Shown one piece after another: positions 1-1,934 of a stretch of DNA of 64,000 nt. Made by a program: the position numbers and the translations under genes. Positions within the stretch are counted from its first letter, which is position 1. Each line of letters begins with the position of its first letter. The notes beneath the pieces were generated by a model. That model had not been told where the DNA came from. It made no database searches and was given only the letters and a program-made list of their open reading frames with translations. The stretch is taken from assembly GCF_056746865.1 (NCBI RefSeq), contig NZ_CM163382.1; one strand, written 5' to 3'.

Positions 1-171
1 TTGCAATGAAAATAACGCCCGCCTAGTATGTGCGCGTTTTCTTATTCCACAAACTGCAAGGAGGTAAATCATGACAAATCCTTTATCAATGACTCTTTGC
101 AGACCTTTCCAGGATTAATTCTTTTTTTCTTGCCCTGGATTCGTCTGCCATTTCCTGATTTTTATTCATAA

Positions 172-1323
172 ATGGAATGGTTTATGGGCAAATATATTCG
201 TCCCTTATCCGATGCGGTATTTACCATCGCATCTGATGACCTGTGGATCGAGAGTTTAGCGATCCAACAATTACACACCACGGCAAATTTACCCAACATG
301 CAGCGCGTAGTAGGGATGCCAGATTTACATCCCGGACGCGGCTACCCGATTGGCGCAGCGTTCTTCTCCGCAGGCCGTTTTTACCCGGCACTGGTCGGCA
401 ATGATATCGGCTGCGGCATGGCGCTATGGCAAACAGATATTCTCGCTCGCAAATACAACGCCGATAAGTTTGAAAAGCGATTATCAGCTTTGGATGACGT
501 TGCTGAAGAAAGCTGGCTGGAGGAAAACCTGCCGTCAGCATTTGCACAGCATCCGTGGCGCAGCTCGCTTGGCTCTATCGGTGGCGGAAACCACTTCGCA
601 GAACTGCAACAAGTTGATGAAATCATCGACGCTGAACTGTTTGCACTGGCAGGTCTGGATGCGCAGCATCTGCAACTGCTGGTTCATAGCGGCTCGAGGG
701 GGTTGGGGCAGTCTATTTTACAGCGGCATATTGCCTCGTTTTCGCATCATGGTTTGCCTGAAGGCAGTGACGACGCGCTACGGTATATTGCGGAACATGA
801 CGATGTGCTAGCGTTTGCGCGTATTAATCGCCAGATGATTGCTTTGCGCATAATGCAACAAGTTAAGGCCACCGGAAGTCCGGTTCTGGATGTGGCGCAT
901 AACTTTGTTAGCGCGTGCCAAATCGGCGATCAACAGGGTTGGTTGCATCGTAAAGGTGCCACGCCGGATGACAACGGTCTGGTGATTATTCCCGGTTCAC
1001 GCGGTGATTACTCCTGGCTTGTACAGCCTGTTGCGAACGAAAAAACGCTCCACTCGCTGGCGCATGGGGCAGGGCGTAAATGGGGGCGCACCGAGTGTAA
1101 AGGGCGTCTGGCAGCGAAATGCACGGCGACGCAACTCTCGCGTACTGAACTTGGCAGTCGGGTAATTTGTCGCGATAAACAACTCATCTTTGAAGAAGCG
1201 CCACAAGCCTATAAATCGGCTGAAAGCGTGGTGCAATGTCTGGTGCAAGCCGGTTTAATTATTCCTGTCGCGCGGCTGCGTCCGGTGCTAACGCTCAAAA
1301 ACAGTGGAGGGAAAAAAGGATGA
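172..1323 (+). CDS. RtcB-family RNA ligase paralog (RtcB2-type, linked to prfH); true start may be the ATG at 184
   Basis: 383 aa ORF with RtcB hallmark motifs ([27 protein letters not shown]); stop overlaps prfH start (ATGA at 1320-1323). Confidence 0.85.
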
Positions 1324-1934
1324 TCTTGCTACAACTCTCCTCAGCGCAGGGGCCGGAAGAATGTTGCCTCGCAGTGAAAAAGGCGCTGGACAGGTTGATT
1401 AAAGAAGCTACCCGACAAGACGTCGCGATAACGGTGCTGGAAACAGAAACGGGTCGCTACTCTGACACGTTGCGTTCAGCGCTGATTTCTCTGGATGGCG
1501 ATAACGCATGGGCATTAAGCGAAAGTTGGTGCGGCACTATCCAGTGGATTTGTCCGAGTCCGTATCGGCCTCATCATGGGCGCAAAAACTGGTTTCTGGG
1601 CATTGGGCGTTTTACTGCTGATGAGCAGGAACAATCGGATGCAATCCGTTATGAGACGCTGCGTTCGTCGGGGCCGGGCGGTCAACATGTCAATAAAACC
1701 GACTCGGCGGTACGCGCCACGCATCTGGCATCCGGGATTAGCGTGAAGGTTCAGTCAGAGCGCAGCCAACATGCCAACAAACGGCTGGCGCGATTGCTGA
1801 TTGCCTGGAAGCTGGAGCAACAGCAACAGGAAAATAGCGCGGCGCTGAAATCGCAGCGGCGAATGTTCCATCACCAGATTGAACGTGGCAACCCGCGACG
1901 AACGTTTACAGGGATGGCTTTTGTCGCTGTGTAA
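1320..1934 (+). CDS. prfH: peptide chain release factor homolog PrfH
   Basis: 204 aa; GGQ motif in [24 protein letters not shown] upstream of ATG at 1320; start overlaps upstream stop. Confidence 0.9.

Follow-up and report, generated by a model that had tools for sequence, protein, structure and literature searches.

A small leader open reading frame upstream of Escherichia coli rtcB–prfH, a sequence counterpart of PA5471.1 of Pseudomonas aeruginosa

The DNA analysed here (the window) is a stretch of 64,000 nt from contig NZ_CM163382.1 of NCBI RefSeq assembly GCF_056746865.1, and is 100% identical to the sequence of Escherichia coli 042 and of many other strains. It opens immediately upstream of rtcB–prfH. 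To our knowledge, RtcB2–PrfH is the only system which rescues and re-ligates ribosomes cut by colicin E3. Positions 1–183 are probably the promoter and leader of this operon, with the leader acting as a four-segment switch that is controlled by ribosome stalling and works mainly by masking the rtcB start. The leader contains an open reading frame (ORF) of 15 codons which, as judged by sequence, is the unannotated counterpart of PA5471.1, the leader peptide of P. aeruginosa armZ. From the analysis that follows, rtcB–prfH is probably switched on when ribosomes stall.

The small ORF and its relatives

The original prediction described a consensus Shine-Dalgarno (SD) sequence 5 nt ahead of a small ORF at 71–118, lying 54 to 66 nt before rtcB, and suggested a leader peptide or upstream ORF regulating the ribosome-repair pair. 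The window bears this out. The SD AAGGAGGT (58–65) is followed by a gap of 5 nt (aaatc), ATG 71–73, 15 sense codons (MTNPLSMTLCRPFQD) and the stop codon TAA at 116–118. Since an in-frame TAA is present at 65–67, the ORF cannot be extended upstream. The two distances to rtcB are correct for ATG172 and ATG184, respectively. In strain 042 the dinB-yafN-yafO-yafP operon closes with yafP, which stops 8 nt before window position 1, and rtcB begins at ATG184. The ORF is thus free-standing in an intergenic region of 190 nt and does not form the in-frame end of a preceding gene. The predicted pairing with the 3' end of 16S rRNA is −12.7 kcal/mol for the small ORF versus −4.5 kcal/mol for rtcB, the SD of which is only weak. 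The small ORF is not annotated in 042, in K-12 or in any of 12 further E. coli genomes sampled across the match list. A second ORF of 47 codons (28–171) in another frame, the TAA of which abuts ATG172, is probably a chance occurrence; it lacks an SD and is broken by an insertion in K-12.

Loci with relatives of RtcB2 were collected by one genome scan (a single protein query, 8 loci), by protein look-ups and by one metagenome scan. Upstream regions of at least 200 nt were searched for an SD-led ORF with an ATG start, 12–21 codons long and ending 50–270 nt before rtcB. Such an ORF was found in 83 of 87 distinct rtcB–prfH upstream regions, as against 5.5% of shuffled copies and 18% of reverse complements, and this set ranges from the Enterobacterales to Pseudomonas and to GC-rich environmental contigs. 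The small ORF is thus neither due to chance nor strain-specific, and its conservation, along with the covarying helix and the alignment with PA5471.1 described below, supports the suggested regulatory role. All sampled genera (Escherichia, Klebsiella, Citrobacter, Salmonella, Kosakonia, Cronobacter, Intestinirhabdus, Limnobaculum, Providencia, Proteus and Pseudomonas) possess an SD-led ORF of 13–16 codons about 110–135 nt 5' of rtcB; in Intestinirhabdus it lies 280 nt 5', owing to an insertion. The upstream neighbours vary between genera (yafP, dinB, a DeoR regulator, an AsnC regulator or an amidohydrolase), and the leader therefore belongs to rtcB–prfH. A PrfH homolog follows rtcB in 93 loci, and the six loci without one include contigs which end soon after rtcB.

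Within E. coli, the leader (window 1–165) is at least 95% identical in 5,387 of 5,426 complete genomes, while only 2,673 of them retain 80% or more of window 1–1,400, which covers the leader and rtcB; about half of E. coli thus has the leader without its operon. Among the Escherichia loci read only two missense variants were seen, both in the variable N-terminal half of the leader ORF.

As to the peptide, the original prediction had looked to its conservation in other genomes with rtcB–prfH: the presence, strong SD, length and position of the ORF are kept throughout the Proteobacteria sampled, but the amino acids vary. Among the Enterobacteriaceae, residues 2–8 change freely (e.g. MTNPLSMT, MNTDFQNA, MTLYSLNA and MTQHALIS) and the C-terminus (L/F/I)CR(P/H)(F/S)Q(D/E) is kept; between clades the peptides differ (MQQLITLCRSRLA, MINNLTPFAGPLS, MKTISIFCRSLLK, MTRNTSIRSITFFAAQASV and MQTIAQTTIQLGSLNAARVI). 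The nucleotide core CUUUGCAG is common to these clades and specifies Leu-Cys-Arg in some, Phe-Ala-Gly or Phe-Phe-Ala-Ala in others, CUUUGCRG being nearly invariant. Because the core is read in different frames and the N-terminal residues are variable, conservation is at the level of the RNA. Amino-acid conservation beyond this nucleotide constraint, as expected of a functional small protein, was not found, and some loci have unrelated families of peptide in this place. Nor do the clades share a peptide motif of the ermC/cat arrest type, so that a specific arrest peptide is unlikely. The spacing of these elements is restricted: from the AUG to the GCRG of the core there are 22–39 nt, and from GCRG to the stop codon 14–26 nt (17 nt in 18 of 32). 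Two loops of the leader RNA vary from 13 to 168 nt in length and tolerate mobile-element insertions. No Rfam family matches the leader, the only hit being a sub-threshold match to STnc350 on the opposite strand.

Two further families of leader peptide, MQKNTTSLWAGSAVAGLI(K/A) and x(F/S)LGLAGxxL(H/R), precede rtcB–prfH on GC-rich contigs (L040, L045, L063, L069 and L077; L039, L047, L049 and L074). In single-sequence folds of both families the leader SD again pairs with a pyrimidine stretch within the ORF, and the x(F/S)LGLAGxxL(H/R) family keeps a CCAAUCC/GGAUUGG helix before rtcB.

The closest described system is that of P. aeruginosa, where armZ (PA5471), encoding an RtcB-like ligase, adjoins PA5470 (prfH) and is controlled by the leader peptide PA5471.1 (PMC12057347). 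In the P. aeruginosa locus (L100) the SD GCAAAGGAGG is followed by the ORF MIQFSTLCRLRLA, armZ and prfH. Gln3, Phe4 and an amber codon produced by C7-to-T in this ORF all match the published PA5471.1 (PMC13041342). The gene order, short leader ORF, RtcB-like ligase and prfH, is the same in both species. Over its full length ArmZ has 59% identity to E. coli RtcB2 (E = 1e-158), and the leaders share the SD (GCAAAGGAGG versus GCAAGGAGG), the core, the residues TLCR, the downstream GYCUGC arm and the rtcB start context (GGAUUGG..AUGGGCAA). The P. aeruginosa core CCCUUUGCAGGC, downstream arm GGCUUCGGUCUGCC and start context GGAUUGGAUUAUGGGCAA are all as in the E. coli leader. AAGGAG, CTTTGC-G and the stop TAA are invariant in an alignment of the leaders, and intermediate forms link MTNPLSMTLCRPFQD through MQALITLCRSRLA to MIQFSTLCRLRLA. 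The shared leader and the identity of the ligases therefore identify the E. coli ORF as the counterpart of PA5471.1 at the sequence level. Its locus has the SD-led ORF before ligase and prfH, the leader homology and helices of the 1:2 and 2:3 kind; a 3:4 helix in the form of an intrinsic terminator was not found, which lowers the claim of a terminator and not that of orthology. The E. coli leader differs in having 15 codons and a spacer of 65 nt, compared with 13 codons and 212 nt in P. aeruginosa. Furthermore, E. coli RtcB2 is not known as an anti-repressor, E. coli has no link to MexZ/MexXY, and regulation has been studied in P. aeruginosa only.

Promoter and helices of the leader RNA

The features of the region are collected in Table 1. 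The gene limits are those annotated for the identical sequence of strain 042.

Table 1. Promoter, leader and operon features at the start of the window
Feature	Position	Strand	Remarks
Sigma-70-type promoter	1–29	+	−35 TTGCAA 1–6, 17-nt spacer, −10 TAGTAT 24–29
GC-rich discriminator GTGCGCG	30–36	+	directly after −10
H0 5' arm CUGCAAGGAG	54–63	+	overlaps leader SD
Leader SD AAGGAGGT	58–65	+	AAGGAG invariant in alignment including P. aeruginosa
Leader ORF MTNPLSMTLCRPFQD and stop	71–118	+	counterpart of PA5471.1 by sequence
Switch segment CUCUUUGCAGAC	93–104	+	93–102 pair with 54–63 (H0), 99–104 with 143–148 (HA outer)
HA inner helix 5' arm CCAGG	109–113	+	RNAalifold columns 69–74 with 121–125, compensatory changes
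UUGCCC, candidate anti-start element HC	130–135	+	complementary to GGGCAA 186–191; overlaps HA inner 3' arm
HA inner helix 3' arm CCUGG	134–138	+	RNAalifold
HA outer helix 3' arm GUCUGC	143–148	+	covariation and RNAalifold
HB 5' arm CCAUUUCC, pyrimidine-rich anti-ribosome-binding-site arm	148–155	+	pairs with 174–180
HB 3' arm GGAAUGG, weak purine-rich rtcB ribosome-binding-site region	174–180	+	mostly paired in every folding scenario
rtcB	184–1323	+	RtcB2-type RNA ligase; gene under regulation
prfH	1320–1934	+	downstream of rtcB

A promoter of the form TTGCnn-17 nt-TAnnAT occupies the corresponding position in Klebsiella, Citrobacter, Salmonella, Cronobacter, Limnobaculum, Providencia, Proteus and Pseudomonas, that of P. 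aeruginosa being TTGCGC-17-TAGGAT. From its sequence, transcription would start near position 36. An automated scan of the window reported no promoter at 1–29, probably because it sits at the window edge. The discriminator is GC-rich in all genera read (GTGCGCG; elsewhere CGCGCAC or CCGCG) and in sequence resembles those of promoters under stringent control by guanosine tetraphosphate (ppGpp) and DksA. The stretch 14–40 was considered as a terminator of the upstream dinB-yafNOP operon and dropped; it is the −10 and discriminator, conserved in position despite other upstream genes. In Salmonella (L011 1680–1803, − strand) an element resembling the enterobacterial repetitive intergenic consensus (ERIC) lies just 5' of the leader promoter (Rfam V_AS5, 39.9 bits, threshold 96).

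Complementarity was compared with shuffled sequences in 32 representative leaders, and fixed-register covariation tests of helices H0 and HB were carried out on a 20-sequence alignment of gamma-type leaders. HA shows strong covariation, and in E. coli consists of an outer part, GCAGAC (99–104) with GUCUGC, and an inner part, CCAGG with CCUGG. Seven matched pairs of outer arms are found: GCAGAC/GUCUGC, GCAGGC/GCCUGC, GCGGGC/GCCCGC, GCGGAC/GUCCGC, GCAGGUC/GACCUGC, GCAGGAC/GUCCUGC and GCAGCCC/GGGCUGC. In an alignment anchored solely on four invariant bases of each arm, 91.5% of cells are paired, four pairs and 22 cells have changed on both sides, and the covariation score of 0.326 (versus 0.141) is reached by none of 500 shuffles; controls in which the arms were slid are 22–50% paired. 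RNAalifold, applied to a plain MAFFT alignment of whole leaders, returned the same two-part helix, with compensatory changes in 8 of 11 pairs. For all four helices the duplex with the species' own partner is more stable than that with another species' partner, the gap being largest for HA (−12.3 versus −8.4 kcal/mol).

H0 joins CUGCAAGGAG to CUCUUUGCAG (93–102) in 10 bp with one G-U pair, and is part of both the minimum free energy (MFE) and centroid folds of the E. coli leader. It is represented by 5–12 complementary bases in all 32 representatives (at least 7 in 28), each better than 95% of shuffles. Matched variants are GCCAAG/CUUGGC (L061), CUGCGUU/AACGCAG (L086) and UGCAAAGAA/UUCUUUGCA (L079). 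In the 20-sequence alignment H0 is 86% paired, chiefly via invariance.

HB pairs the pyrimidine arm right after the HA 3' arm with the purine-rich stretch 3–12 nt before the rtcB AUG; elsewhere it takes the form CCACAUCC/GGAUUGG, UGCUUUC/GAAAGCA or CUUUCCC/GGGAAAG. Shuffles were beaten in 22 of 32 representatives, and the mean duplex energy is −9.1 kcal/mol with the own partner versus −7.2 with that of another species. Counted in a fixed register, HB does not reach significance, its register differing from clade to clade. The region of its 3' arm contains an in-frame ATG172, 12 nt 5' of the annotated rtcB start ATG184, which would give MEWFMG... The sequence ATGGA(A/T)TGGTAT (172–183) is kept at the nucleotide level in many genera. 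In Citrobacter and Intestinirhabdus it reads CAGGAATGG, so that 172–183 is conserved as the HB 3' arm and not as a start codon; the rtcB start common to all lineages is ATGGGCAA (184).

The second codon of rtcB (Gly, 187–189) is GGC in nearly every lineage, whatever the G+C content, the exceptions being GAC, one GGA and one AGT. It was this synonymous constancy that raised the idea of a fourth helix, HC, in which UUGCCC would pair with GGGCAA, that is, the start-codon G and the next five bases. In many lineages UUGCCC is found 5–7 nt ahead of the HA outer arm. Pairing extends to 78% of cells, and 3 of 500 shuffles reach the covariation score of 0.158 (versus 0.117), so that HC is put forward tentatively. 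Two other pairings were rejected: the long-range 46–55/181–190 pairing, seen in the MFE fold of E. coli, is not kept in Klebsiella, and an ermC-like 2:3 pairing of the HA 3' arm with the HB 5' arm is impossible because these arms are contiguous.

The spacer between the leader ORF and rtcB is 62% pyrimidine, versus 49% for coding sequence, is G-poor, and has more C than G in 42 of 45 leaders.

Insertions were encountered in several of these leaders. K-12, which keeps the small ORF unchanged and has the known internal rtcB–prfH deletion, has an ERIC-type element of 127 bp inserted at window position 165/166. This element, of the ERIC/intergenic repeat unit (IRU) type, lies in the HB loop (L002 1334–1460; K-12 253334–253460) and is also present in some other Escherichia (L003 and L022); further strains and Klebsiella spallanzanii have shorter, partial copies there (L006, L009, L020, L021 and L027). 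A stable 125-nt RNA, ecr0235 (253340–253465, + strand), reported in a K-12 RNA-end study, coincides with the insert. The region is therefore transcribed on this strand; that dataset shows this RNA only and no transcription start for the leader. The Intestinirhabdus alba leader has an insert of about 170 nt in the HA apical loop (L013 1720–2000), and prfH of this species (L013 3137–3812) is called as two pieces of 144 and 61 residues, probably a pseudogene. The metagenome contig L089 begins (1–45) with the Nextera-adapter-like sequence TCGTCGGCAGCGTCAGATGTGTATAAGAGACAG, joined to the middle of a leader, an assembly artefact. In the neighbouring operon of E. coli 042, the annotation gives yafO (L001 4133–4531) as a pseudogene, interrupted by a stop codon, and its partner yafN is intact.

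The putative switch and its alternatives

The published work on P. aeruginosa provides the framework for assigning a function to these helices. PA5471.1 is transcribed from a constitutive promoter and described as constitutively expressed; its complete translation allows a 3:4 hairpin to form and armZ is off, and ribosome stalling turns armZ on (PMC12057347, PMC13041342, PMC3884212). Inducers comprise aminoglycosides, chloramphenicol, tetracycline and defects in suhB, cca, fmt or folD (PMC12057347, PMC13041342, PMC3884212). An amber mutation at codon 3 and stalls at codons 3–4 induce, deletion of nt 1–226 derepresses, and a clinical 7-nt deletion (nt 16–22 of the leader) is constitutive (PMC12057347, PMC13041342). 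Placed on L100, the latter is ACCCTTT (RNA ACCCUUU) and removes exactly the H0 3' arm.

In the proposed mechanism four segments would pair 1:2, 2:3 and 3:4. Segment 1 would be the flank of the leader's own SD (54–63), segment 2 the core and HA 5' strand in the 3' part of the leader ORF (93–113), segment 3 the spacer with the HA 3' strand and the arm opposing the ribosome-binding site (130–155), and segment 4 the rtcB start with its ribosome-binding site (174–191). In a leader without a ribosome, 1:2 (H0) and 3:4 (HB, perhaps HC) could form. Were the whole leader translated, the ribosome would cover segment 2, segment 3 would be free to pair with segment 4, and rtcB would be off. Were a ribosome instead to be arrested at the start or on codons 1–5, it would block 1:2 without reaching segment 2, leaving the latter free; for this reason 2:3 (HA) would form, segment 3 would leave the rtcB start region, and rtcB–prfH would be expressed. 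The peptide itself would have no function, only the position of the ribosome counting. The GCAG of the core begins 28 nt past the A of the ATG in E. coli and 22 nt past it in P. aeruginosa. This assignment of segments fits the stalls at codons 3–4, the codon-3 amber and the loss of the H0 3' arm in P. aeruginosa. That E. coli would behave as P. aeruginosa does, that the positions given above would be the inducing ones, and that the output would be masking rather than intrinsic termination are extensions of these observations. With ribosome footprints imposed on 36 leaders, the rtcB start region had a predicted unpaired probability of 0.43 when the ribosome was placed at the leader start and 0.37 when it was placed at the leader stop, compared with 0.38 for the RNA alone. 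The differences are slight, if of the sign expected, and equilibrium folding of this kind cannot settle the output step.

Several points weigh against this mechanism. The predicted change in accessibility is small, and HB is mostly paired in every scenario. A joint shuffle control of H0 and HB in fixed register on the 20-sequence gamma-type alignment was not significant, HC is a tentative pairing, and the permutation and Wilcoxon p-values ignore the relatedness between sequences. No hairpin followed by a U-run is present in window 1–200 or in the P. aeruginosa leader, so that the published 'terminator' output is not apparent from either sequence. The segments were mapped here from later accounts of P. 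aeruginosa, and the definitions of Morita et al. 2009 may differ. The function of the leader in E. coli is one that we infer. Lastly, a K-12 table of retapamulin initiation peaks (bioRxiv 10.1101/2021.07.02.450978) has no peak at the small-ORF start, the data being from LB only, one condition and a strain with a degraded operon (coordinates +4566 from NC_000913.3); the table lists peaks for the nearby dinB and yafN, and yafO and yafP are absent as well.

The best-surviving alternative, possible if on balance unlikely, keeps the same sensor and helices and has premature transcription termination in the spacer, intrinsic or Rho-dependent, as its output. The 3:4 hairpin is described as a transcription terminator in P. 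aeruginosa (PMC13041342, PMC12057347), and the pyrimidine-rich, G-poor spacer resembles a Rho-loading site, so that Rho-dependent termination is also possible. However, neither leader has the hairpin and U-run of an intrinsic terminator, the pyrimidine bias is partly due to arms which pair with purine-rich partners, and one review names the mechanism 'translational attenuation' (PMC3884212). The E. coli 3:4 element moreover extends to 3 nt from the rtcB AUG, over the ribosome-binding site, an arrangement which favours translational masking.

An extension of the masking switch, which we regard as speculative and rather doubtful, would make the leader a dedicated sensor of damaged ribosomes, its trapped complex being itself a substrate of the operon's products. 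A ribosome with a colicin E3-type cut in its decoding centre would load on the unusually strong SD, fail at the first codons and lock the HA ON fold; PrfH and RtcB2 would then release and repair the trapped ribosome, and so reset the switch. Such a loop would be ancestral to all rtcB–prfH operons of the Proteobacteria, and P. aeruginosa would later have co-opted it for antibiotic-inducible MexXY efflux.

The original prediction had also allowed for coupling, in which rtcB would be translated only if the small ORF is. The weak rtcB SD sits in a hairpin and the leader ORF passes through the HA 5' strand, as coupling might have it, but in P. aeruginosa complete translation represses, and the codon-3 amber or deletion of the leader activates (PMC13041342). 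A variable distance of about 60–250 nt separates the leader stop from the rtcB start, with mobile-element insertions tolerated, and in the folding predictions the rtcB start region is no more open with a ribosome at the leader stop than in free RNA (0.37 versus 0.38). Coupling is thus unsupported, and we consider it improbable.

It is quite improbable, too, that the leader regulates as RNA alone, be it as a riboswitch, by binding a protein or as the target of a small RNA, with the ORF a by-product of the helices. Conservation of nucleotides, and not of amino acids, with the core in different frames would agree with this; against it, the SD spacing, the ATG, an open frame and a near-fixed distance from core to stop are kept in 83 of 87 regions despite differing peptides, the literature reports constitutive expression of the P. 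aeruginosa ORF and altered regulation upon point mutation of its codons (PMC12057347, PMC13041342), and the leader belongs to no Rfam family.

Very little probability attaches to the E. coli ORF being an inactive relic or a chance ORF kept by descent. The missing K-12 initiation peak and the persistence of the leader without its operon (5,387 versus 2,673 of the 5,426 genomes) would suit a relic, but the near-uniformity of the leader across E. coli, with only the two missense variants in the Escherichia loci read, does not; in the window all elements are intact beside an intact operon, and orthologs across orders have the same anatomy. That the 15-residue peptide is a functional small protein acting in trans is extremely improbable, since its C-terminal motif, conserved within the Enterobacteriaceae, is encoded by the HA 5' strand, which accounts for that conservation, while residues 2–8 vary and other clades have the core in another frame or unrelated peptides.

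Related systems and significance

A leader working by stall-controlled masking would resemble several known systems. It shares with the trp and his attenuators a short leader ORF, three mutually exclusive helices and selection among them by ribosome position; it differs in having no regulatory codon runs, in that segment 1 is the flank of its own SD and not internal codons, and in a 3:4 helix that lacks a U-run and overlaps the downstream ribosome-binding site. In ermC and cat a stalled ribosome in a short leader ORF likewise remodels the hairpin hiding the ribosome-binding site of the next gene, and the P. aeruginosa inducers too are ribosome-targeting drugs; the rtcB-leader peptide, in contrast, is not conserved, many classes of drug induce, and the segments corresponding to 2 and 3 of the ermC scheme are contiguous and cannot pair. 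Like tnaC–tnaA it has a pyrimidine-rich, G-poor spacer behind a short leader ORF, but it has no conserved arrest peptide, the spacer bears conserved helices, and any role of Rho would be hypothetical. In rtcBA, the other RtcB operon of E. coli, an RtcB-family ligase is also controlled in response to damage of the translation apparatus (PMC12606134); there control is by an enhancer-binding protein, RtcR, and sigma-54, whereas rtcB–prfH has a sigma-70-type promoter and a leader peptide in cis.

The E. coli RtcB2–PrfH literature searched contains no mention of a leader, a promoter, an upstream ORF or how the operon is switched on; the 2006 paper defining the rtcB–prfH operon mentions neither leader nor promoter, and searches of the literature by peptide sequence and by leader keywords found nothing. 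This kind of leader is therefore known, and its E. coli member is undescribed in the literature searched. The small ORF and its RNA structure are likewise missing from the genome annotations examined and from Rfam.

A recent review calls the PA5471.1 mechanism apparently 'unique to MexXY' (PMC12057347). Because its conservation is broad, the present comparison suggests that this mechanism is the ancestral control of rtcB–prfH across the Proteobacteria and not a peculiarity of MexXY. The E. coli operon is thereby tied to the stall-inducible armZ leader, and its expression would be expected to rise when ribosomes stall early in the 15-codon leader.

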